A stretch of 63,798 nt of DNA, the filler included, from Collodictyon triciliatum (taxonomy: Eukaryota), in the NCBI GenBank assembly GCA_043381765.1. It is 15 parts of 15 records of this genome, joined end to end, with 100 filler letters (N's around TTAATTAATTAA, not from the genome) between each part and the next. Parts side by side here need not be neighbours in the genome. Positions count along the whole stretch, not along the records: positions 13,063 to 17,320 come from JBHJMP010006323.1; 14 more parts are not named here. The stretch is one strand, 5' to 3'. The notes under the pieces are model-generated. The model did not search any database. It was not told the origin of the DNA and saw only the letters and a list, made by a program, of their open reading frames with translations. Within the stretch, counting starts at the first letter, position 1. Each line of letters opens with the position of its first letter. Shown piece after piece: positions 4,257-55,300 of this stretch. Both the position numbers and the translations under genes were made by a program.

Positions 4257-4356
4257 NNNNNNNNNNNNNNNNNNNNNNNNNNNNNNNNNNNNNNNNNNNN
4301 TTAATTAATTAANNNNNNNNNNNNNNNNNNNNNNNNNNNNNNNNNNNNNNNNNNNN
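4257..4356. other. Artificial contig spacer (N44-TTAATTAATTAA-N44)
   Basis: The same 100-nt spacer, with stops in all six frames, recurs at 8610, 12963, 17321, 21673, 26023, 30373, 34723, 39072, 43420, 47767, 52113, 56456 and 60800. Confidence 0.98.
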
Positions 4357-8609: not shown

Positions 8610-8711
8610 NNNNNNNNNNNNNNNNNNNNNNNNNNNNNNNNNNNNNNNNNNNNTTAATTAATTAANNNNNNNNNNNNNNNNNNNNNNNNNNNNNNNNNNN
8701 NNNNNNNNNAA

Positions 8712-8777
<66 letters not shown>

Positions 8778-8818
8778 GAAGCGCAAATGTCATTTTATAG
8801 TAGAAATGATTCGCCCTA

Positions 8819-12663
<3,845 letters not shown>

Positions 12664-13202
12664 CGCAGGTGCTTTCGTGGCCGAAATCAGAAAAGGATCC
12701 TTGACCTAAGATAACCAGCGTCAAGTTATACAAGAGTCTGGGGAATAAGAGACAGTATGGATGGATGGCTTCTCTTTTCTATCTTGTGGGTGTATTTCCT
12801 TTTCTTTGTTTTTTGTTTTCTGTTTTTCTGTTTTTCTTTTTCTTATTTCCTTTTCTTTGTTTTTTTGTTTTCTTTTTCTTTTTCTTTTTCTTTTTCTTTT
12901 TCTTTTTCTTTTTCTTTTTCTTTTTCTTTTTCTTTTTCTTTTTCTTTTTCTTTTTCTTTTTCNNNNNNNNNNNNNNNNNNNNNNNNNNNNNNNNNNNNNN
13001 NNNNNNTTAATTAATTAANNNNNNNNNNNNNNNNNNNNNNNNNNNNNNNNNNNNNNNNNNNNTTCTCTTTCTCTTTCTCTTTCTCTTTCTCTTTCTCTTT
13101 CTCTTTCTCTTTCTCTTTCTCTTTCTCTTTCTCTTTCTCTTTCTCTTTCTCTTTCTCTTTCTCCTTATGCAGTCCGCTTATTGAGATATTTTGATTTATA
13201 AG

Positions 13203-16148
13203 TTATTTTTTTTGATCATGAAACAAAGAAACATAGGGCAACTTCACAACTCTCTTGTCGAAACAAACGCATCGAGTAGGATTTCGAAAGAGTGAGTATA
13301 GTCGTCGAGTTTGGAAAATAAAAAGATTAATCAAACACGATTGCAGAAGCCCTCTGGTAGTAAGTGTACCTATCAGAGTATCAAAAACTCTATCTTGAAC
13401 ATGATGAACTGAATTTTGACCAACCATGAACCACAGTATGCCAGTGTATACTCCTACGGAAAGAACAACAGGTATATTTTCAAAACTAAAGAACAGTACT
13501 TCCTCCCACTTGTTGGCGAAAGCATCGTAATACCTTTGCTTCTTTTGGTTGTGTTTGAGTAGCTCGCCAATCGCATCGTCCCGTTGTTTATTCAGCTCGT
13601 GGAATCCAAGCTTCTTTCTTAATAAAATTGAAATTCTAATCACATGATATAGTAGATCATAATTCCTCACCTCATCTTTTAAAAAACTGGCGTATAGTTT
13701 TGTTAGGCGGCTATTGAGGGCTTTGAAAGAGCAAGGTTGTGCGTCTATTAGCAGAGACTTGGAAAGGGTGACAAATAGGGCCACAAAAGCCCAGAAGCGC
13801 TGGAACTCTTCAAAGCATCGAAAATAGTCGACACTGAGAAGTAGAACCCCAATCCCGTTGATTGCAGAAAACATCGTTTCAAATGAACTCAGGGCGATTA
13901 GGGAGCCACCGGTTGAAAAGGACATGAAATGGGTGAATGTGGACAAAGCCCAGAGACCATAAAGGGTTACTCCAATCAACTTTTGGTTGGGAAAGACGTA
14001 GTACATGTCAATCGGAAAATAGATTGGGGCGACAACCATAAAGAAAACTGACAGAGTAAAGACTCTACGAGTGCTCCAGAGTATGAGTGCGCCTAGCTTT
14101 CTCCCAAAGAAGGTGTGGCCTAAGGTATAATCTGATGTGTAGAATCGGAAAGATTCCTCGGGCGTGAAGACAATACCGATGCGGGACAGTTCACGTGCTC
14201 TAACGTCTGAAATGGCAATTGTACTGTCAGACCTGGAGCGTGGATTGTCCTCAAGTTCCTCACGATGCCTGGATCTGGATGTCTCAGGGCTTTTAATATG
14301 ACTTGTTCCTACCTCAGGAGAGGTTGCCGTATGGTTTTTTCGAGATGAAGTTGAATGAGATACACCTGTATGAATTTGAGATTCCAAACTTTTTGATCCT
14401 TCTTTTTTACTAACGTTTTCTGGATAAAGCTCCTCTACCTGAACATGATTAGGTAAAAAATACGAGCTTTCCACAGATACTGGAGCACACGCGTGGACCA
14501 TATTATGTCTTTGATCAAACCGCATGCCAACATCTATCTTTTGTTTGCAAAGTATTCTAATGGAAGTATCAGTGTCGTTGTCTCTTTCGAGTGATGTAGC
14601 TTCGGGTACAAGAATGCGTGGGGAATGTGGTACAGATGAGCTTTTGACAATTTTATCGAAATATGTACCTTTCTTATCCAATAAATGGTCGTAGAATTCA
14701 TTTGACATGAAATATTTCCAGCCTTCGGCCAAAGGGATGCGATGAAGTTTCCTGTCGAAGGAATGGACCTTCATAGGTGATATAAAGCACATAAAAAGCC
14801 TTCGTAAACAAAAAAGTATGACATTTGCACTGCATGCCCGAAATACTGATGTCCATTTCACTGACACTGAAAACAGCATTACGGTAGCAGGATAATTTCG
14901 ATATATCGGATTTTTCTCGACGATGGCGTTCATCATGATTGGAGATGTGGCTCCAAGCAATAAAGAAACAATGGAATTAAGCCCTATAGTTTGGATCAAT
15001 TCCCATCTTCTTTCTTCAAGAAACCATCGGCCTATGTGTCTTCTGTAAAAGAGGCTAAGGACTTTGTAAAAATTCTGAAGAGATTTTATCACAAGGTGAT
15101 CTTTTGAAATCTCCACTATTTTAAATCGCTTGCGATAGACCGATGGGATATCTATGAATGAACCTGCCATTCCTGTAACGTTGTCTGGCTGATTCGAAGC
15201 ATAATCTTCGGGCATAGGATTGTCTTGACCTGCATTCTCGGGTAGAAAGCCACACCTTTCTTGTGAGCTCAAAACAGAGACATTACTTACCGGAGGGTTT
15301 TGTTTTAGAGGAAATGAGAGCTGACCAGTGGCTAGACGACCTTCATCAGGCAATTCATCGAATGTAATGGATGGGACCACATAAAACTGGTGATACCATA
15401 CTTGTATTCTTTTAAAGAGAAAGTTGAGCCGAGTCAAACTTGTTGGCCATGAATCAATAAATATTAGATCCAAATAACTCAATACATACAGTAGAAATGC
15501 AAAGGCACTGGTAGGAGACCAACCACATACGTTGATGAAGGCCGTAATCGAAAGAAAAATGTTAAGCGAAAGGTAAACAGTCTCAAAATGGAAAAACGAA
15601 TGAAAAACCATATCCTTTTGCATTAGAAAGAAAAATAGTGTGGGATAAATACTACTGACAACAAATATGCTGATATACGGAGCCACTCGTATTCTGTTGG
15701 GGTCACTAAATACATACAGTGCATAAGCGATACCAATACCGGTGCAACCCAGTAAGAATGGGCCGACCCGTTTGATGATTCTTGATATCCACCGGGTGGC
15801 TTTTTGTCCCCAAATCCAACTTCCAATAGTGTCAGAGTAATCCAGTGGGATAAATAAGTCCGAATCGGTTACAACAAACACTTTGTGTTTAAATATTGCT
15901 TCCAAAGAGCTGGTGTCAAAACAATCAGACTCGATCACCCAATTTTGTCGCCTTACTTTCTCAGTATCCTTAGCCTCTACCGCAGGGATTGGAGGAATTG
16001 ATGAAGGTTCCTCGTGTTGGCTCTGTGCGTCAGAGACGGCGTTGACGCAGCTGTTGCGGAATTCTGTGTTTTCGTTTAGCGGATGGCCTCCTACAATTTC
16101 CACTTTGGTGCCTCCTTTGTCTGACTTTGATGAACGCCTGACTTTCAT
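13203..16148 (-). CDS. Uncharacterised polytopic membrane protein with two tandem homologous ~6-TM domains
   Basis: Uninterrupted ~980-codon ORF (first ATG at 16148); hydrophobic helices in two blocks with matching motifs, separated by a Ser-rich linker. Confidence 0.85.
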   Translation of the reverse strand: MKVRRSSKSDKGGTKVEIVGGHPLNENTEFRNSCVNAVSDAQSQHEEPSSIPPIPAVEAKDTEKVRRQNWVIESDCFDTSSLEAIFKHKVFVVTDSDLFIPLDYSDTIGSWIWGQKATRWISRIIKRVGPFLLGCTGIGIAYALYVFSDPNRIRVAPYISIFVVSSIYPTLFFFLMQKDMVFHSFFHFETVYLSLNIFLSITAFINVCGWSPTSAFAFLLYVLSYLDLIFIDSWPTSLTRLNFLFKRIQVWYHQFYVVPSITFDELPDEGRLATGQLSFPLKQNPPVSNVSVLSSQERCGFLPENAGQDNPMPEDYASNQPDNVTGMAGSFIDIPSVYRKRFKIVEISKDHLVIKSLQNFYKVLSLFYRRHIGRWFLEERRWELIQTIGLNSIVSLLLGATSPIMMNAIVEKNPIYRNYPATVMLFSVSVKWTSVFRACSANVILFCLRRLFMCFISPMKVHSFDRKLHRIPLAEGWKYFMSNEFYDHLLDKKGTYFDKIVKSSSVPHSPRILVPEATSLERDNDTDTSIRILCKQKIDVGMRFDQRHNMVHACAPVSVESSYFLPNHVQVEELYPENVSKKEGSKSLESQIHTGVSHSTSSRKNHTATSPEVGTSHIKSPETSRSRHREELEDNPRSRSDSTIAISDVRARELSRIGIVFTPEESFRFYTSDYTLGHTFFGRKLGALILWSTRRVFTLSVFFMVVAPIYFPIDMYYVFPNQKLIGVTLYGLWALSTFTHFMSFSTGGSLIALSSFETMFSAINGIGVLLLSVDYFRCFEEFQRFWAFVALFVTLSKSLLIDAQPCSFKALNSRLTKLYASFLKDEVRNYDLLYHVIRISILLRKKLGFHELNKQRDDAIGELLKHNQKKQRYYDAFANKWEEVLFFSFENIPVVLSVGVYTGILWFMVGQNSVHHVQDRVFDTLIGTLTTRGLLQSCLINLFIFQTRRLYSLFRNPTRCVCFDKRVVKLPYVSLFHDQKK

Positions 16149-16196
16149 TCCTGGGCGCAATAGGTATGTTTGAAATGGCCATGAAATAAAAGAAAG

Positions 16197-16233
<37 letters not shown>

Positions 16234-17233
16234 GACGGACTCATATATGCCTTTATCTTCGATTGTGTGTCTATTCTGTTGTTTTGTTGGCCTCCTTTTC
16301 CATGGTTGTAAATCAAAATAAAATATATACAATTTACGATAAGGAAGAAGGGAGAAGGAAGAGGGGAAAAGGAGGAAGGAAGAAGGAAGAAGGAAGAAGG
16401 AAGAAGGAAGAAGGAAGAAGGAAGAAGGAAGAAGGAAGAAGAGAAAGGGAAAAAATTAGAGAAGGCGGAAAGAAAAAAGGTAGGAAGGAAGAGAGAGAAA
16501 CAGTAAGAAGATGCCTTGGGCTGCCGGCTATTTGCGGTGCCGTTGTAGTCGTCGCAACTCCATTACCGACGAGTTAAGGCGAAAAAGAATCGGTTGACCA
16601 AGACCGCAGAAAATGGTCTATTCGTATTTTGAACTGTTTCGAACATTCGCACAGAAATATTTCTATGGGTAGAAAAGAAAATTGCCTAATCAGAATTTTA
16701 TATATTTATCTAAATATGGAATTTATATACACAGTCTTGCGTCGAAGGCAAAACAGTCAAATTTTTGCAGCCAAAAATCAAAAGGCGAGATAAATTGAAA
16801 AAAATTGCTCCCACTCAAGACAGGCAGGAAACAAAGTCGAGACGTGTCGGTTTCTCTGGGTATCAAGCTCTGCTATTAATCCTTCTGTTTGCCCTCAAAT
16901 GAAGTTTGGCATGAAACCCGGGTGATGGTTTGATTCAAAAATGTCAAAAAATTGCGTCCCGATGACAAAGTCCTTTGATACTGATGGCAGGCTTAGAATG
17001 TATATGTGACGAAACTGAATAAAACCTTTTGAAGTGGTGAGCAGAACAGGGTCATAGGTAGTTTTTATAATCATTTCAAGTATGCTCTTGACTCAAGATA
17101 TGGACGTTTCGATGGCGGAACAACTAATATAACATGGTTATCAATTATCAATGAAGTTTGCGAAACCCATTATTTAAGAAAAAAAAGTCACAAAAGACAA
17201 ATAGTTCGCCATAAAGAAAAAGAAAGAAGCAAG

Positions 17234-17266
<33 letters not shown>

Positions 17267-17467
17267 GACGACAAGCAGCACCTACAATTTTTTTAAATAA
17301 TTTTGGTAAAATCGGGGGGANNNNNNNNNNNNNNNNNNNNNNNNNNNNNNNNNNNNNNNNNNNNTTAATTAATTAANNNNNNNNNNNNNNNNNNNNNNNN
17401 NNNNNNNNNNNNNNNNNNNNTCCCAAGAAGGAAAGGCGTTTTCCTAAGTTTTTTTTTCCAAAAAAAA

Positions 17468-20600: not shown

Positions 20601-21288
20601 CGGATGTGCAGCTCTATACCGCCCTGCTTTGTACGTTAGGAAACTCAAAGTATATTTCACGAGCTTTTAGTATCCTCTATGAGATGAAACAGGTTTGTAG
20701 ATTACATATTTAAACCCGGCAAAAAAAAAAAACTCAATATCACCAAGTTCGTGAATGCGAGGAGTAAAAATAATCTTATTAAAACTCATTGGATATATGG
20801 ATTGTGCCATATATTCAAGACCGATTCAGTATCTTAGACTCAACTGAAATAACCATGTCTCTATTTCGATTGCCCAGGCAAACGTCCAGCCAAACGGCAT
20901 CACATATGCGGTCTTGATCGAAATATTCAAGAAATCCCGGTCACCTGCCAAGGCTTATCGCTCGTATCTGTGCATGAAGAAGCTTGGCTTTGATGTTCCT
21001 GACAGAACACTCTCGACCCTCTTGGAGGTCTTCACCGAGTGCAACGATACGAACCGCGGACTCGAGATTATGGACGAGATGAAGCGAAGAGGCCTCCACA
21101 CAAGGTTAGTGATTCTTGCTATGCAGATATTCTCTGATAAGACCAAGATAAGGAAAAACGCTTGCCAGGATATAGATGATGTGATATTGCACACTCGACT
21201 CCTGGCTGCTCAAATTCATCACTTTTTTTGATCCAGCCTTTCAGCCAGTGCTCCAAGACTAGCGGAGTTGAAGAAGAAGCCTCTCTGA
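17619..21288 (+). CDS. Pentatricopeptide repeat (P-type PPR) protein, multi-exon; start uncertain
   Basis: 35-aa repeats across exons: VKPNAVTYNILLSAY, ISPTTTTFGTLLKAY, PDAPIFNMLIDACGRLG, KPNMKSYTSLIQAFARNGQPEKAEDILREM, PNSRAYTLIIDSYG, QPNGITYAVLIEIF, PDRTLSTLLEVF. Confidence 0.9.
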
Positions 21289-23176: not shown

Positions 23177-25754
23177 CTAGGATGAGCCTACGTAACCACC
23201 GGATGTGTGAGACCCAGGGCGTCGTAAGCCTGCAGAGACACTTGCTCTTCTTCCCAGATTGTTGGGCGCGGTGGGTCTAGAAGCAGATGGAACTTTGCCA
23301 CGAGGTGGAAGTCCGGTCGTTTTTTCTTTGGTTCGCGTAAAGACCTTCTCGGTTTTGACCTCGGCTTCACATGAACTCTTGTTCTCTTTTCGCATTCGTG
23401 TGAGCATGTTGATGATGTCTTCCATCCTCTGCGCATCTTCAGTGCGGCGGTCATCCATCTTGACCCATTTGCGCGACCCAGGATTCAGTAAGTGAGTTGT
23501 GTTTTTTTTTCGACGTACTCGAGTGATTTTTGTGTCTGCATGGCTTGATTCAACTTCAGAGGTTGAGTCATCACTAGAATCCTCGTCACTCTGTTATGCA
23601 CATACAGCCATAATATATTATCGGAATTAGAAAAAAGAAACATGCAAATTTATGAATATAGGAAATCGAAGCGATGTATGACAATAAGACACCAAAGGAT
23701 CGATTGCCTGAAAAAAAAAATTAATGAAAGCCATGGTGATTTTAACATTCTGCTTCAGCTCATGTCAAAAATGACAGCGAAACATTTCCCCGGAGATGGA
23801 AGGAATAAATGAGGATTTTGGATTGCATTACCATGGCAAAGGGGTAGAGGCATGAGCGTTCTAATATCTGGTGGTCTTCTGCTCCAATGTCGTCAATGGT
23901 CAGGCTAGGCTCGAACGGGGCCGCAATCAAGTCAATGTTTCTAAAAAGACTCTGGTGTACATGGTCATATCCCGCACTTTTCTCGACCTGGTGGTGATTC
24001 GCGCAGCAGCCGCCTCGATGAATAGAAGTTCCAAACCGGAGTGCTCGTCCCTGACAACAATCGTAGCTTAAAGCCACGTAATCAAGTGAAAAGAAACCTC
24101 TTAATCCGTGTGAGGCAGACGTCGAATATGGGGAATGAACGAGTGGGGCATGAGCTTGGGTAAAGAAACATAAGATACTATATCGCACATCTCCAGAATA
24201 CACATCTCAGAGATACTATACATCCCTATTCACCGTATGTAGTTGGACTTACTGTCCGACTTGGTCGCCCGGGATGAATGTTGGTTTCTCGGGGTGATAT
24301 GCACAGTGTTTGATCTTTGACGCCTCAAACTTATTCCCACATCTTGTGCAAAAGAGGGTATGAACCAAGCCCCATGTTTGCCAGAAGATCTGTTTCCACG
24401 ATAGCCCACGTTGTTTAAGGGAGCTGAAGTAGACAACCATTTCAAACCCAGGGTCGGCCTGGTGCCTTTGGTGAGGTAAAAATATTTTGTTTGAGAGAAA
24501 CAAAGAGAGAAAGGCATTCCTACATTTGTTTTAGAAATCGCTTTTGTATGCACACGGTGGTTGTGTTTGAGAATGATGGGGAGAAGTAAAGATAAGCAAA
24601 ATATTTGCCGCGAGAACCTTGCAATTACATTCCCGTGATAGTCCACATATATCTTTGCTTTTCTGCAAAGCATCCACTCTTTTTGAGATTCCGCATATAC
24701 ATATTGACATAACAAACACTTATTCAAGACGTTTTCAGGATTTTGAACCAAGGCCTCCAGTTTACAAATAAATAATTTGCTGAGAATTCTGTCCTTTTTA
24801 TCCTTGATTCTAAAAAAAAAATAGTAAATTCAATACTAAATCAGAAAAAGAGAGTTCTAAAGGGAAAAAAAAACATAGTCGAGCATCTAGTTTGGAGAAG
24901 ATAAGGAAATAATTATGAAAGTTGACTGGTTTAATTCTTCCAGCGTGAAAGCATCACTAAGTTTTTGGAGCAATGACTTCCCAACACAATTTAAATCCAA
25001 GGGAAGGCGAACAATCTGATTGAAGAATTTCTTGGAGTATTGGATGCATTCGTCAACGACTTCGGATATTTGGAGAAACTCGCAGGAAACCATGATAGAC
25101 ATTACACTCGTAATATCTAGAATAGAGCGGTGAAATATTGCTTAATCATGACTAAAGGAGATATAATACATCTAAAGACTATTAATAGAGTGAACCTACT
25201 TCACCAAAAACATATGTATGAAATCATCTTTAAATAACGAAACAAAAATATGCGATGGAAAAATCGATTCATAATATAGAATATATAAATCTAAAATCAT
25301 AGATAATTGCATATAAGGGGCGGCTACCGAGCCTCAGACGACGGTCAGATTTTTGGACATACTCCATTAGCCACTCAAATACTTCCAAGTCGCAGTGCAC
25401 CGATATGTCAACCTCGTCTGGGCGACCAGATTCAGATAATAGCGAGGTAAAATAAAGCATTCTGGATACAAGTAGATTTCGACTACAGAAAAAATCTTTT
25501 CTAGAACGACGCGGCTCGTCAATAACATGTATTGTGACCATGTAGTCTCTCTCGTTTGGGGCTTTCGCAGTATCGGTTTTCTCACGCGGGGTTGGTGATG
25601 GGGGAAATTCGGGCATTGAGTGGTTTGGTATTGCTGATTTTGACGATACAGCCATGTTTGTGGTATCACGCTTCGTTGCGAGGGTCGAGATACGACGCGT
25701 TTTAGGAGACAACATTCCTGTAGGCGAATGTGCCAGTTCATGTGCGTCTTGCAT
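23177..25754 (-). CDS. SANBR: SANBR/KIAA1841 (DUF3342) homologue
   Basis: VTIHVIDEPRRSRKDFFCSRNLLVSRMLYF, VDISVHCDLEVFEWLMEYV, SIMVSCEFLQISEVVDEC, CTRCGNKF...HCAYHP, YDCC, C-terminal DDRRTEDAQRMEDIINML; exons join in frame. Confidence 0.88.
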
Positions 25755-25966
25755 GCTTGAAACTGTAAGTACAAATAGAAACAAAGGGCCGTTATATTTG
25801 CAGTATCAGACTTGCAAGGTCAGTAGTATAGTTTATATAAAGCCAAATTTTATGGATGTGACGAGGGAGGGGCTGCATAATTTGATTTTTGGTGGCTTTA
25901 ATTATTATCAATGCGTTATCCTGCTGTCTGTTTTTTTTTGTTGTTTTTTTTTTTTTTTTTTTTTTT

Positions 25967-48442: not shown

Positions 48443-51400
48443 TCAAGAGGTGTTGAACGGGTGCAGGGGTGGATGAGTAAATGGGTTGCAGGAATGGAGC
48501 GCAATGCGTGATGATGACGGATTCATAAGAGTTTGCGCGGTTAAAGTTTTGAGGTATAGGACTTCGGGAGGCAAAATCAGCGTGTCTTGCAGGTCGAGCG
48601 TGGCCAACCTCCGAGCTAATTCACGCGGGACAGATGCGATTGGGTTGCGGTTGGCATAGAGCCTTTGCAAGGAGACCATTTCGGTCAAAGAAACCGGGAT
48701 TTGTGTGATACGATTGTTGGATATCTTAATTTCTACCAGACTGCGACTCAGAACGGCCAAGGATGGTGGGAATGTGTAGAGCTTCATATCCGAGATATCT
48801 ACCGACCACGGCGGTCTCTTGTTAAAGGTTTTCCAAACAGCCTCGTCTTCAGCAGGGAGTGGGTTCGTTGAGAAATTCAGACGACTCAAATTGCTCAGGT
48901 GAGCGAGGTGTAGTGGAATGGTCGAAAAGAAGTTGAAGCTCAGATTCAGGGATATCAGAGAGCTTAAATGAGTGAAGCATTCAGGAATGGTTCGGAGTCT
49001 GTTGTGAGATAAATCCAAGAATGTCACTTGTAAAAATCGAGTCACCATGGAGTCTGGGATATTGGAGAGTGCCAAATTATTCAATTGAACTTTCCTGTGG
49101 CTTAGTTTGCTCTCTACGTTGATGAGCATGTCAGCATTACTGAGTGGATTTCGTGAAACGTCAAAGTGTTCCAGATTATCGAGCCCTTCGGCCACTCGTT
49201 CAGATAAACTACGAATCAAGTTTCCACGCAGAGACACCATCTTAAGCTTGGTCATCGGAAAGAGTCTTTCCACGAAAGATTCGAGAAGATTGAAGCACAG
49301 ATTCAGTGATTGCATGTGCCTCCAGCTACATAATTGATCATCTGCTATGTGACGAATCAGATTGTAAGACAGGTCTAGTCCTCGAAGTGAGGAGATACTA
49401 GCTAGTGCCGAAGGGATGGCATCGAAAAAGTTGCAGGAAAGATTGATTACCTGCAAGTTTTGTAAATGAGAGAATGATGCAGGAAGGGACTTAAGTTCAT
49501 TCGACGAGAAGTCAACAACTTTAATGGATGAGAATCCCTGCGGGATCGATGGAATTTGCTGAATTTTGTTACTGGACACGTCCAACAACTGGATGGAGGT
49601 AAATGCATATATTTCCATAGGTATCTCATCCAAACATGCATCACGCAGAACAAATTTCGTAGAGTCTGGTTCGGCATCGGATATTAGCTCGGCAATTTGT
49701 TCAAGGGATTCCTGTTGCTTCATTTTGTGATACCTTTCAAGAATTTCCTCATCTGCAATTATTGGTCGATTTTGCCAATTGGGAATGTGTGGTCCATCAT
49801 TTATCTTTTCTCTGAACTGGAACAAACTTTTAAGCATAGTGACCCGATTTTTTAGAGTTTCCAATTTGACAAGTTTTGGAAGGTTTGAAACAAAATCGGG
49901 GATTTCGATAAGGTAATTGTCCCCCAAATACAGCTTTTCCATGTTGGTGAGCGTTTCCAACCACTGCGGGATATAAGTCAGGTAGTTGGAGCGAGCATTC
50001 AGTACACGAAGTTTGGTAAACGGCTCTATTGCGGCAGGGATGTGAATGAAATGATTGGATTCCAAGCTGAGAAGTTCAAGGGAGTTGTACGGGGTGCTTA
50101 GAAATTCTAAAGTTGTCAATTTATTGAAAGCCAGATTGAGAGAGCGTAGGCTTTGAAAGGGTATCGTTTTTTCCCATTTATCAGCTAATCCAAGTTGATT
50201 CTTTGAGAGATTGAGCGTCTCGATATTAGTCAAGTCAGAGAATCCTTGTGGTAATTCAATCAGTGCATTTCCTGACAAATCCAAATGCTGGAGGCCTTTG
50301 TTCACCAGTATGATGTCTGGTGCTTCATAAAGGTGCAAGTCTTTGAAGGAGATCAAGTTCAAATGGGTAAAACAATTCAGATCGTGAGGCACCTTTCGTT
50401 CACAATTGAGTGTAGCACTCCATTTTAGATAAGAATTCTTTGCAATATCTCTCATTATCTTTGGTGGCAAAATTATTGGGTTGTTATCATAAACCAACCG
50501 GGTAGAGTTTTGTTCTTTTATGAAATGAAAGTTCAAGGCCTCAACTTTATTTCCTTTAACATTGATGGTTGATATATTTGGAAGTTCTGAGATGGAAAGT
50601 GGGATGCATCGAATCACATTAAGCGAAACGTCCAAGTATTGTAATTGAGTCAAATTGCTCCAGTTATTTGGGAGCGAAGACAACTGGTTGGAATGGATGA
50701 TGATGGAGCAGAGGCTGCTCAAATGCAACAGGTCAGTTGGAAATAGTTTGAATCTATTGTTGGATAGGTCGATGCATTGGAGATTTCTCGATTTTAAATC
50801 CTGTTTTTCCTCTATAAAGAGATTTGTAAGGTAGTTACTACTCAGATTGATGCTATCCAGGTTCAAGTGGCGGAACAGGTCCTTTGGAACGACCAACAAA
50901 CCGTTGTTGGACAGGTCCAAGTCACGAACAGCCTGTAGCTTTATAACAATCGAAAAATCTATGTATTCAGAGAGATTAATACGTACTTCCGTAATATGCT
51001 CGAAGAGGGGAATGTATGGAAGAACTGACTTCCCAAATCGACCAGAGAATCGAAAAGTGGAATCACATCGGATTGTTGAGTTTAAGAGTTGCACAATAAC
51101 TGGGTCGATCGGATTTTCAGAAAGGTCAAACAGCTTGAGTGAGTGAATGTTGACAACGGATGCAGGGATAACTTCAATACGATTCTTTGAGAGATTTACA
51201 TATTCCAAGCATTTCATATTCCCCATAGAGTTTGGTAAGTGTATGATTTGGTTTTGGGATAAATTCAGTTTTTTGAGAGCAAAGAGATTCGACATTTCCT
51301 CAGGGACTGTGATAATGTTATTGTTGGAGAGATTCAGGGAGATTAGGTTTGTAAGTTTTCCGACTCTGCGAGCCAAGTCACCGATATTTCCACCAATAAT

Positions 51401-51576
51401 GTCCAATCTTCGTAGTCCAGTCAAAGTATACACAGAGCTTGGAATGCGGTCATTTCCTGATAGGTTGAGAATCAAGACTACCAAGCATTTCGTATCCGGT
51501 AGACCGGGCTCCATTTCGATGTAGTCGTATATATATAAATGTAATATTTCTACGGTGTTCAGGTCGATACCTTTAG
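48443..51576 (-). CDS. Large leucine-rich-repeat protein (>1040 aa; one ~3.1-kb terminal exon, 5'-partial)
   Basis: About 30 LxxLxLSxNxL/IxxLP repeats; frame stays open upstream of the 51514 ATG to an AG acceptor at 51577-51578. Confidence 0.93.
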
Positions 51577-51644
51577 CTATATAAAGTAAAACAAAAGACT
51601 TTTCAATTTTTAACAGAATTTTTGTCTAGAGAAAACAGCTCGAA

Positions 51645-52361: not shown

Positions 52362-55300
52362 ACTCTTAACATGTCATCAAACTTGAGCTTCTCCTTCATG
52401 ATGATATCGCGCTGTCGGAGTAGTATCCCGACAGCAATAAAAAGGTGAAAATTATCACCTTTGTGCCTGCTCCACAATGACTAGAGTGAATTAAAAAAAA
52501 GGAAGGTACCTCAGGGGGCAACTATAGACTGAAAAACAAAACCTTATACGGAGAATGTCCATTATATTTGCAAATGAGAAAGATTGTATGTGCGGTGTTT
52601 GGTGTGAGCAGAAAGAAGTAAAAGAAGTAAAAGAAGTAAAAGAAGTAAAAGAAGTAAAAGAAGTAAAAGAAGTAAAAGAAGTAAAAGAAGTAAAAGAGGT
52701 AATAGAGGTAAAAAGGGAAAAGAAGAAAAAAAAACAATTTTTTCCAGACCTCCCACAACCGATTTATGTCATCATGAGAAAATTCTCTTTTAAACCGGAC
52801 AAGAATCCATCGATACATAAAGAACATGTTCACGGAATCGTTCTTTTCTGATTATGATAACCTTTTTGAGTTTTTTCCTTCATATATGTATAAAAAAGAA
52901 AGAAAAAATATGATATGCATGTGATATTCTAAATTATGTTTGATGCAGCCACAAACCCAAGTATAGATACAATGAAGGATCAAGATACTTCAACAGATTT
53001 CGGAGCTGCTCAAATTGCTCGTGAATTCCTTTCTGGTCTTGGCGAAAATTGCGAGCCTTTAATTTTATCCATCACCTTGTTTAGTTTTTTTTTTTCAAAA
53101 AAAGAAAAGAAAAGAAAAGAAAAGAAAAGAAAAGAAAAGAAAAGAAAAGAAAAGAAAAGAAAAGAAAAGAAAAGAAAAGAAAAGAAAAGAAAAGAAAAGG
53201 CGAAAAATATTTTCCCCGATTATAGCAGACGTGCTCAGGGAATACATAATTTATACATGACAATTCATAATTCCTTATTTGTAAGGATATATACAGTATT
53301 TCTCATGTCGCTGATGAAGCACCCGAAGGCCAATTCCTCGTCCTGAAGAATGCATAACATCGGGGATAGCAAGTCATTCATTCCTTGAACATAGCCTATT
53401 TCCCTGCCAAAGTTAACCATAGAAACAACCAAAACCCAAAAAAACCCAAAAAACAACTAAAATACATGTCACATGATATTAACGAGGAAAATCAAATATA
53501 ATTGCGACCTAAATCCCAATTGAAGAATGAATAGGACAGAAGGATATTATGGAGCTGTTTAAGCTGTGGGCTCTCATCTGACAGAAACAAGGGATGCTGT
53601 CTATCAGTGCGAACAACATCTTTCTCTACATAAGATGCGTTATGAAGTTTAGTGAAGTTATTCAAACGACAGAATACTGGGAAATGCCGTTTATGCAACT
53701 AACTGAATAATAAAAATAGCTATTGCACTTCCACTTAAATTCTGAAAAGAACAAAAATAAAAAAAAAACCTATTTGTGTCTTCCGGTCCTTATAAGGAGT
53801 GAAATTCTCTTCTTGCAAAGACGATATGTTGGACCATTGCAAAATTAAAGATTGATACAGTTTTCTAATGACATAAAAGTTTAATCAAGGCACAAAATAG
53901 GAATTTTAATTGAATTTTTCTTTTTCAGATGTATATAGTCAAGTATCACAAAGATACAGAATACCAAGGTAACAAACTTATTTTCTGCCAGAATCAACTC
54001 TCGCTGCTTGTAGGTTGATCCAAATGGATAGAGTCCAGTGATGTAGGGCCAAACTAGTATGCGGGCACTGTCTTCGACACCCTATTTTTCTTCTATATTA
54101 GATCTAGGTATTTCTGATATATGAAGAAAACGTTTCCTTTTACTCCAATTTATAATGACAATACACTTGATTTTAACATGGTTAATTACCCCGAAGAAAA
54201 TGAGCTTTCTAACTGCATGTTCTTTCTTAGAATCTATTCGCCCTTCGGAATCAAGTAGACTGTTCCAAAATTCCACTGGCATCGATTGTTTGACATCGAT
54301 TGTTTGACATCGATTGTTTGACATCGATAGTTTACACATATATCCCGATGTTTTTTTTTTAAAATTTTTTTTTTTTATAATTAAAATGCCGATTAGTCAG
54401 TGACTAAAAACCTGAGACTTTTTTGTGGGTTTTGATCTGGCCTGTGCGCTTAATGTCGAACCGTAAAGGCGGAACACTATGAATCTATGCAATGTACAAC
54501 GCATAGCCACATTTAGGTTTGTCATTATGTTTTCTTTTTCTTTTAATATTTTTTTTATGATTCAATTAACCCAGTAAACAAGCGAATAGAATTATCATTA
54601 ATTTATCGTGATGTTTGAATACCACACACATCTGATGCATCTGATCTCTGAATAACTTCAAATTCATCATCTCCGCCTACTTGTAGCGAGCTGGAGGTTG
54701 CTGCTGATTTATACATTTTTACCATCATGATAAAACATAAATCAAGCAAGGATAATATGAAAAAGTAACACAAAGTTACCCTCATGCTTCTTTGATTGCA
54801 GAATCGGAATATATTGCTTATTTTCAGTTCCAGTGCGCGTGACTGACTGACCTTATTTTTTATACTTATTAACAAACTTTCTATTCGGTAATAGCATAAA
54901 AATGGTAAGCAAAAAACGCATACTTGTCGTGGTGGCAATTTGGGAGGTAATTCGATAAACAGAATGTAAAATTTCAAACCAGCCAATCCCCTAAATATAG
55001 TGATTTAAATATGCCTGAAACTTTTCCTCTTTATTAGATTAACATGAAAAACAGAAGCAATGCGAAATGAAAGAACTAAGCCCGAGGGCGGACTCACGCT
55101 TGCAGTTGAATCAATTGGGTCGGTGGATAAAACCTTTTCAATGATTTTTGATCTTCGAATAATAATAAAATTACACTCAGGCATTTTGTCTTGAAGCCCG
55201 TAAGTTATATGATGAAACTTTTTTTTTTAACAAAGTAGGCGAGTACTACAATATCAAGAACGAAATAAATATTACTCACTCTTGAGCGACAACGAACAGA

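Follow-up and report, generated by a model that had tools for sequence, protein, structure and literature searches.

The stretch of DNA analysed here, referred to as the window, comprises 63,798 nucleotides from the assembly of Collodictyon triciliatum (GCA_043381765.1) and carries on its minus strand, at positions 13203..16148, a single uninterrupted open reading frame (ORF) of 981 amino acids that runs from ATG to stop in the standard code. At the base composition of the window, the probability that 981 codons remain free of stops by chance is approximately 2e-31. The gene is intact, consists of one exon and belongs to a freshwater protist related to the diphylleids (CRuMs); its product is very probably built from two homologous modules of six transmembrane (TM) helices, 12 TM helices in total, with a disordered Ser-rich linker of about 170 residues between them.

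The organization of the window determines how the surroundings of the gene should be read. Fifteen pieces of about 4.25 kb make it up, in approximate order of length from 4,258 to 4,243 bp and with the last one truncated by the end of the window, and they are separated by 14 identical 100-nt spacers composed of 44 N, TTAATTAATTAA and 44 N, which are found at 4257-4356, 8610-8709, 12963-13062, 17321-17420 and ten further positions, approximately every 4.35 kb. Because the window is formed by contigs joined through spacers, the ORF is the sole occupant of its 4,258-bp piece, and gene adjacency across the spacers is biologically meaningless, since the flanking genes sit on other contigs. The assembly break downstream of the ORF was probably caused by simple repeats, which on this contig occupy 13063-13163 and 16201-16510. 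No terminal or inverted repeats were detected once the simple-sequence tracts and the artificial spacers are set aside, and a second copy of the ORF was not found within the window. The codon usage of the ORF correlated only loosely with that of the other coding pieces (r 0.48-0.71), but an off-frame control gave r 0.47, so this measure does not discriminate. Additionally, four freshwater metagenome runs of three studies yielded 11 short contigs (151-181 nt) that align to parts of both modules and differ from them at 0-2 positions. These near-identical contigs demonstrate that the sequence of the ORF occurs in freshwater samples, although one of the runs could be the source of the assembly itself; being 99-100 % identical to the ORF, they offer no divergence for estimating the ratio of non-synonymous to synonymous substitutions (dN/dS), and none of them spans the junction between the modules.

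Relatives of the window protein (P0001) were sought by a HMMER scan of 1.84 billion cluster representatives (about 15 billion predicted proteins) at E<=0.001. Only five were recovered, with lengths of 909, 960, 515, 910 and 283 amino acids and E-values from 6.4e-58 (P0002) to 1.1e-6, and all of them are Trinity transcripts of Diphylleia rotans in EukProt. As these relatives come from a transcriptome, members of the family are expressed in D. rotans. The three long relatives (909, 960 and 910 amino acids) present the two-module plan at 17-27 % identity, and the two short ones, P0004 (515 amino acids) and P0006 (283 amino acids), correspond to C-type modules. P0004 opens with 165 Ser-rich residues, which MAFFT placed against the linker of the long forms, and P0006 begins within TM1. 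Both short relatives may be 5'-truncated transcripts, and for this reason genuine single-module members of the family are not established.

Searches of other resources returned no further members. No Pfam family was assigned to the window protein or its relatives (none of six members; hmmscan against Pfam-A, E<=10, where the otopetrin entry is PF03189), the sole sub-threshold row being Polysacc_deac_1 in one of the six (E 0.098). The family profile matched none of the PDB sequences, otopetrin chains included, at E<=10, and ESM Atlas gave no usable match to the whole protein or to the C-module. Two motif scans of JGI metagenomes, one with [FI]I[SA]PMK[VI]H and similar patterns and the other with [LM][IV]DAQP..., ...[ED][RK]RVVK, produced 395 and 371 pattern matches, none of which was confirmed by tblastn. 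A word-indexed protein search found no relative in the range of 539-1717 amino acids, nor when the family alignment was used as query; this search is insensitive for the family, because the alignment query missed its own members present in the collection. Judged by these sequence searches, no relatives of this unnamed family are detectable beyond a single protist lineage, the diphylleids, in which it is small, fast-diverging and expressed.

An earlier note on this DNA had described a membrane protein of about 980 amino acids made of two homologous halves, each with four TM helices, a loop and about two further TM helices, with conserved acidic residues in FET and ID motifs, a linker rich in Ser and His, and no recognizable named family; our analyses agreed with this description. 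Hydropathy averaged over the family showed six peaks in the N-module (131-147, 159-175, 191-207, 215-231, 394-410 and 432-448) and six in the C-module (697-715, 727-743, 759-776, 784-801, 893-909 and 931-947). The order of elements predicted by AlphaFold2 was the same in both modules, namely a beta-hairpin, TM1-4, an insert, TM5, a second beta-hairpin, TM6 and a short tail strand. The model of the C-module, built from a 7-row alignment, reached a predicted local distance difference test (pLDDT) of 70.3 and a predicted template modelling score (pTM) of 0.70, and the model of the whole protein, built from a 6-row alignment, reached a pLDDT of 49 and a pTM of 0.45. Between TM4 and TM5, the N-module has an insert of about 150 residues modelled with low confidence and the C-module one of three helices, and the loop between TM5 and TM6 has about 20 residues in the modules. 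The linker, of 169 amino acids including 27 Ser and 10 His, is predicted to be disordered.

The distribution of charged residues provides a likely orientation in the membrane. Lysine and arginine together count 148 in the putative inside segments and 26 in the outside segments (about 0.16 vs 0.07 per residue), a distribution from which the positive-inside rule predicts external TM5-TM6 hairpins and a cytosolic location for the linker, the termini and the TM4-TM5 inserts. Both ends of each module would thus lie in the cytosol. A complex prediction between the N-module (86-480) and the C-module (650-981) returned a score of 0.00, which gives no verdict and was not used for conclusions on module packing.

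Several comparisons show that the two halves are homologous and arose by internal duplication. BLASTP of residues 81-490 against 641-981 recovered the C-terminal motif only (E 6e-5, 11/39 identical). The Smith-Waterman alignment of residues 89-480 and 656-975 scored 79, compared with a mean of 39.5 (SD 6.3) for 300 composition-preserving shuffles (z 6.3), and softer gap penalties gave a z of 7.6; in neither case was a score as high obtained in any of the 300 shuffles. When the N-module profile (4 sequences) was aligned to the C-module profile (6 sequences) with hhalign over 311-319 columns, the probability was 99.9 % in global mode (E 4e-31) and 99.6 % in local mode (E 7.6e-24), and the four pairs of motifs that the earlier note had listed were all found in register. 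Moreover, in tblastn searches the N-module of the window protein was matched by the C-halves of P0003 (1.4e-5) and P0005 (0.004) and by the C-type module of P0004 (9.7e-7). In the tree of the ten modules, the four N-modules are set apart from the six C-modules with support of 99/98, which places the duplication before the divergence of all six known family members; within each of the two groups the branches are long and mostly unresolved.

A polar set is kept in 8-10 of the ten modules (4 N, 6 C) over which conservation was counted. The acidic residue of FET, just before TM3, is D/E in all ten, the Asp of the ID..P motif at the end of TM4 is invariant (10/10), and K or R always occupies the second position of the RR pair that follows TM6 (10/10). 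Two Pro residues of the tail are likewise invariant, and two basic positions in the tail are kept in nine modules. TM6 starts with an Arg that is basic in 9/10 modules and contains in its middle an Asn retained in 8/10. The signature of the family can be written for each module as F-[ED]-[TS] before TM3, D-x-x-P-x-S after TM4, R...N in TM6 and an RR-x7-P-x13-P tail, and the window protein contains every one of these motifs in both modules, as expected of a member of this unnamed diphylleid two-module family (P0001-P0006). The features of the gene and of its product are listed in Table 1.

Table 1. Features of the two-module membrane protein gene and of its contig, in window coordinates.
Feature	Position	Strand	Basis
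Contig piece of 4,258 bp with the ORF; artificial spacers on either side (12963-13062 and 17321-17420)	13063..17320	.	Spacer mapping
Complete ORF, 981 amino acids plus stop (protein P0001)	13203..16148	-	Open frame; P(no stop by chance) ~2e-31
(TTCTCT)n microsatellite, perfect (TTCTCT)17, at the contig end, 40 nt past the stop codon	13063..13163	.	Repeat scan
T31 run and (AAGGAAG)n array upstream of the start codon	16201..16441	.	Repeat scan
N-terminal region, residues 1-85, predicted disordered	15894..16148	-	pLDDT <50 for 1-102
N-module, residues 86-480: beta-hairpin, TM1-4, long insert, TM5, beta-hairpin, TM6, basic tail	14709..15893	-	Profile alignment, hydropathy, AlphaFold2
FET motif, N-module, F188-T190, before TM3	15579..15587	-	Module alignment
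IDSWP motif, TM4 end, N-module, D232	15444..15458	-	D in 10/10 modules
TM4-TM5 insert of the N-module, residues 241-387, variable, predicted cytosolic	14988..15428	-	pLDDT <50; poor alignment among relatives; side given by lysine plus arginine
Tail motif after TM6, N-module, R449-P472: RR, two invariant Pro, conserved basic residues	14733..14804	-	BLASTP and module alignment
Inter-module linker, residues 481-649, predicted disordered	14202..14708	-	27 Ser and 10 His of 169; pLDDT <50 across 456-669
C-module, residues 650-981, with the element order of the N-module and a three-helix TM4-TM5 insert	13206..14201	-	AlphaFold2, profile alignment, hydropathy
FET motif, C-module, F756-T758	13875..13883	-	Module alignment
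IDAQP motif, TM4 end, C-module, D802	13734..13748	-	Module alignment
Tail motif after TM6, C-module, R948-P971	13236..13307	-	BLASTP and module alignment

With respect to function, we tentatively propose, at less than even confidence, that the protein is an otopetrin-like pseudo-symmetric 12-TM channel or transporter, as distinct from a demonstrated otopetrin. The two modules would be packed side by side as an intramolecular pseudo-dimer, in the manner of the N and C domains of otopetrin, and would work as a channel or facilitator through which a small polar species passes, protons or another ion being the first candidates. Within each module or between the modules, a polar path may then be lined by the conserved Asn, Arg and acidic residues of TM3, TM4 and TM6, as has been proposed for otopetrins. 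This proposal draws on the overall plan of the protein and on the PDB fold list, where otopetrin representatives align over both modules, three of them with 312, 310 and 291 residues, and no other row exceeds 160 residues.

Several observations weigh against this proposal. Foldseek searches of PDB with both models placed no otopetrin in the top 50 and returned nothing at E<=0.001; the two-module alignments to otopetrin have root-mean-square deviations of 6.5-7.8 A, and the packing of the modules is unreliable in the full-length model (pLDDT 49, pTM 0.45), the alignments behind the models holding 6-7 rows only. Neither Pfam nor the comparison of the family profile with PDB sequences yielded a match, as described above. 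The conserved set of the family is E/D, D, R, N and RR, and a comparison made without residue-level alignment to otopetrin found no conserved Gln or Tyr column in the ten modules that would recall the otopetrin triad. The tail and the membrane face predicted to be cytosolic hold most of the conserved positions, an arrangement that would suit a structural cap or docking surface as well as a pore. Finally, the expression of the family is known from the members of D. rotans and not from the window gene. Still more specific, and unlikely in our view, is the idea that the protein is the founding member of an undescribed pseudo-symmetric 12-TM ion-channel class restricted to diphylleid (CRuMs) protists, which would be either a very remote non-metazoan branch of the otopetrins, moving their architecture back towards the base of the eukaryote tree, or an independent 6+6 invention with its own E / D / R-N-RR set.

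The protein could also be a receptor, sensor or scaffold that conducts nothing. Its 12-TM body would then be just an anchor or a bundle that senses ligands, and the conserved cytosolic face of each module would recruit or regulate partners, the working surface being formed by FET, ID..P, RR, the Pro/basic tail, the small sheet of N-terminal hairpin and tail strand, and the disordered inserts and linker. We regard such a role as somewhat unlikely. It would agree with the location of the positions under the strongest conservation, namely the E/D preceding TM3, the D following TM4, RR and the tail, all of which are on the predicted cytosolic side, with the long disordered Ser-rich cytosolic segments, which are typical of regulated or phosphorylated scaffolds, and with the paralogues of D. 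rotans, at least five in number and deeply divergent, as is often seen in sensory and receptor families. However, the Pfam scans revealed no known signalling or binding domain, the Foldseek rows for insect gustatory receptors are weak (probability <=0.30, TM-score <=0.29), and the Asn in mid-TM6 and the Arg at the outer end of TM6, kept in 8-9 of the ten modules, would be needless for an anchor. The acidic pair could alternatively be catalytic, as in an integral-membrane enzyme that modifies lipids or sugars, for example, with the interfacial invariant Asp and the Glu forming an active site of which each module has one copy. The invariant D and the D/E at TM ends in all ten modules, beside conserved Arg/Lys, are what such an enzyme might display, but it would be unusual for every long member to retain two full copies of an active site, no set of His, Cys or Ser typical of these enzymes is conserved, the candidate matches fall within noise and cover only part of a module, and no Pfam enzyme family was assigned, the Polysacc_deac_1 row being sub-threshold; on balance we judge this quite improbable.

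That the locus has no function at all, being a pseudogene, a transposon ORF, or a chimera of assembly or amplification that falsely appears as a two-module protein, seems hardly credible. Such a suspicion could arise from the contig, which has a length of only 4,258 bp, terminates in microsatellites and belongs to a fragmented assembly. Nevertheless, the length of the stop-free frame is far beyond chance, the family motifs are intact in both modules, the identical order of two modules occurs in three independent transcripts of D. rotans, and the 11 contigs from freshwater runs match parts of both modules with almost no mismatches. The low similarity between the halves, with 11/39 identical residues in the single motif found by BLASTP, argues against a recent duplication during assembly, and there are neither terminal or inverted repeats nor a second copy in the window. 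A transposon origin was dropped for the lack of terminal repeats and of a second copy in the window, and a viral origin was dropped because the HMMER scan and the search of BFVD gave neither a viral sequence match nor a viral fold. The weight left after the otopetrin-like channel or transporter and the three alternatives discussed here belongs to something else.

Two claims of the earlier note were not upheld as they had been worded. It had stressed the lack of introns over 3 kb in an intron-dense genome, an argument that fails since the window is a chain of concatenated contigs of about 4.25 kb and the ORF lies on a 4,258-bp piece, so that the context of intron density carries little weight. 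Long intron-free ORFs are moreover not unique here, as another piece contains an uninterrupted leucine-rich-repeat ORF of 1060 amino acids (48446-51625, minus strand; LRR_8, E 1.6e-67). It had also interpreted the protein as a covalently fused pseudo-dimer of an oligomeric channel, sensor or transporter subunit, which was not shown, given that there is no clear single-module member and that P0004 and P0006 are possibly truncated. With regard to the families that it had named as possible refutations, no confident match to MFS, otopetrin or bestrophin appeared in Pfam or in the fold searches.

Other pieces of the window carry unrelated coding sequences. A multi-exon gene for a fused glutamine amidotransferase and chorismate-binding protein, similar to aminodeoxychorismate synthase, occupies 8819-12705 on the minus strand of the piece 8710-12962 and has at least five ORF pieces with Pfam matches. 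One of its exons has its best match in a transcript of D. rotans (40 % identity, 169 bits against 110 for the next), and the next matches are mostly bacterial. This result agrees with a source organism that is a relative of D. rotans but distinct from it. In addition, exon-sized ORFs were found with BTB_SANBR (E 1.6e-18; 25272-25805, minus strand), with PPR repeats (E 1.4e-6, below the gathering score; 20848-21228, plus strand) and with a weak OATP-like match (E 3.9e-4, also below the gathering score; 52933-53343, plus strand).

Orphan membrane families are common in under-sampled protists. If the resemblance to otopetrin proves false, the family would be one more of them, mainly of specialist interest until its function is measured. 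If it proves true, the family would offer a root for the proton-channel architecture outside animals, and halves that can still be aligned by sequence would help to sort out the essential residues. The CRuMs protists, a barely sampled group, have their branch close to the base of Amorphea, according to the abstract of PMC10492846. Within one diphylleid, a family of large multi-pass membrane proteins with at least five expressed and deeply divergent paralogues represents lineage-specific membrane biology beyond current annotation.

Among known membrane proteins, tetraspan four-helix bundles such as TTYH1, LCI1, CD20/MS4A, synaptophysin, DUOXA1 and TARP/claudin-like proteins cover part of a module only. 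MFS proteins, TMEM175 and two-pore channels resemble the family in the general principle that two 6-TM units in tandem make up a pseudo-symmetric body, TMEM175 and the two-pore channels being two-repeat proteins. No Pfam row for MFS was obtained at E<=10, and neither MFS nor TMEM175 appeared in the PDB fold lists of the full-length protein and the C-module; the search of BFVD with the C-module returned nothing at E<=0.001, and one viral MFS row was seen in BFVD at E 2.7. Bestrophin gave no Pfam row and a single Foldseek row, 6jlf_A, with E 0.99, probability 0.04 and TM-score 0.11. The arrangement of four plus two helices was also considered as a voltage sensor followed by a pore; this reading was rejected, as TM4 lacks periodic Arg and the TRP and Kv rows of Foldseek have probabilities <=0.15.

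The closest likeness is found in the otopetrins (Otop1-3), which, as does the window protein, have 12 TM helices arranged as two homologous tandem 6-TM domains. Intracellular termini, predicted here from the lysine and arginine counts, are stated for Otop in passages of PMC9585144, and the C-domain has in both cases a long loop between helices 4 and 5 and a short one between helices 5 and 6, described there as an 88-residue intracellular S10-S11 loop and a 16-residue extracellular S11-S12 loop. Each otopetrin domain bears a conserved Gln-Asn-Tyr triad, and a Glu-Arg pair lies in the vestibule, according to passages of 10.1101/542308. There are also differences: sequence similarity to otopetrin is undetectable, the N-module of our family also has a long TM4-TM5 insert, and each module contains beta-hairpins and a conserved Pro/basic tail. 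The linker of about 170 residues compares with about 20 in human Otop1, and the halves of our family can still be aligned by sequence, whereas the two halves of otopetrin have low similarity to each other (both points on Otop from passages of PMC9585144). Besides, the family comes from a CRuMs protist, whereas the otopetrin domain family was described in metazoans, of which the abstract of PMC3038909 speaks, and our limited literature search found no record of otopetrin relatives outside animals. Overall, the tandem-duplicated multi-pass membrane plan is already known and the family itself was previously unnamed; otopetrin is its closest architectural likeness, by a faint resemblance, and not its family.

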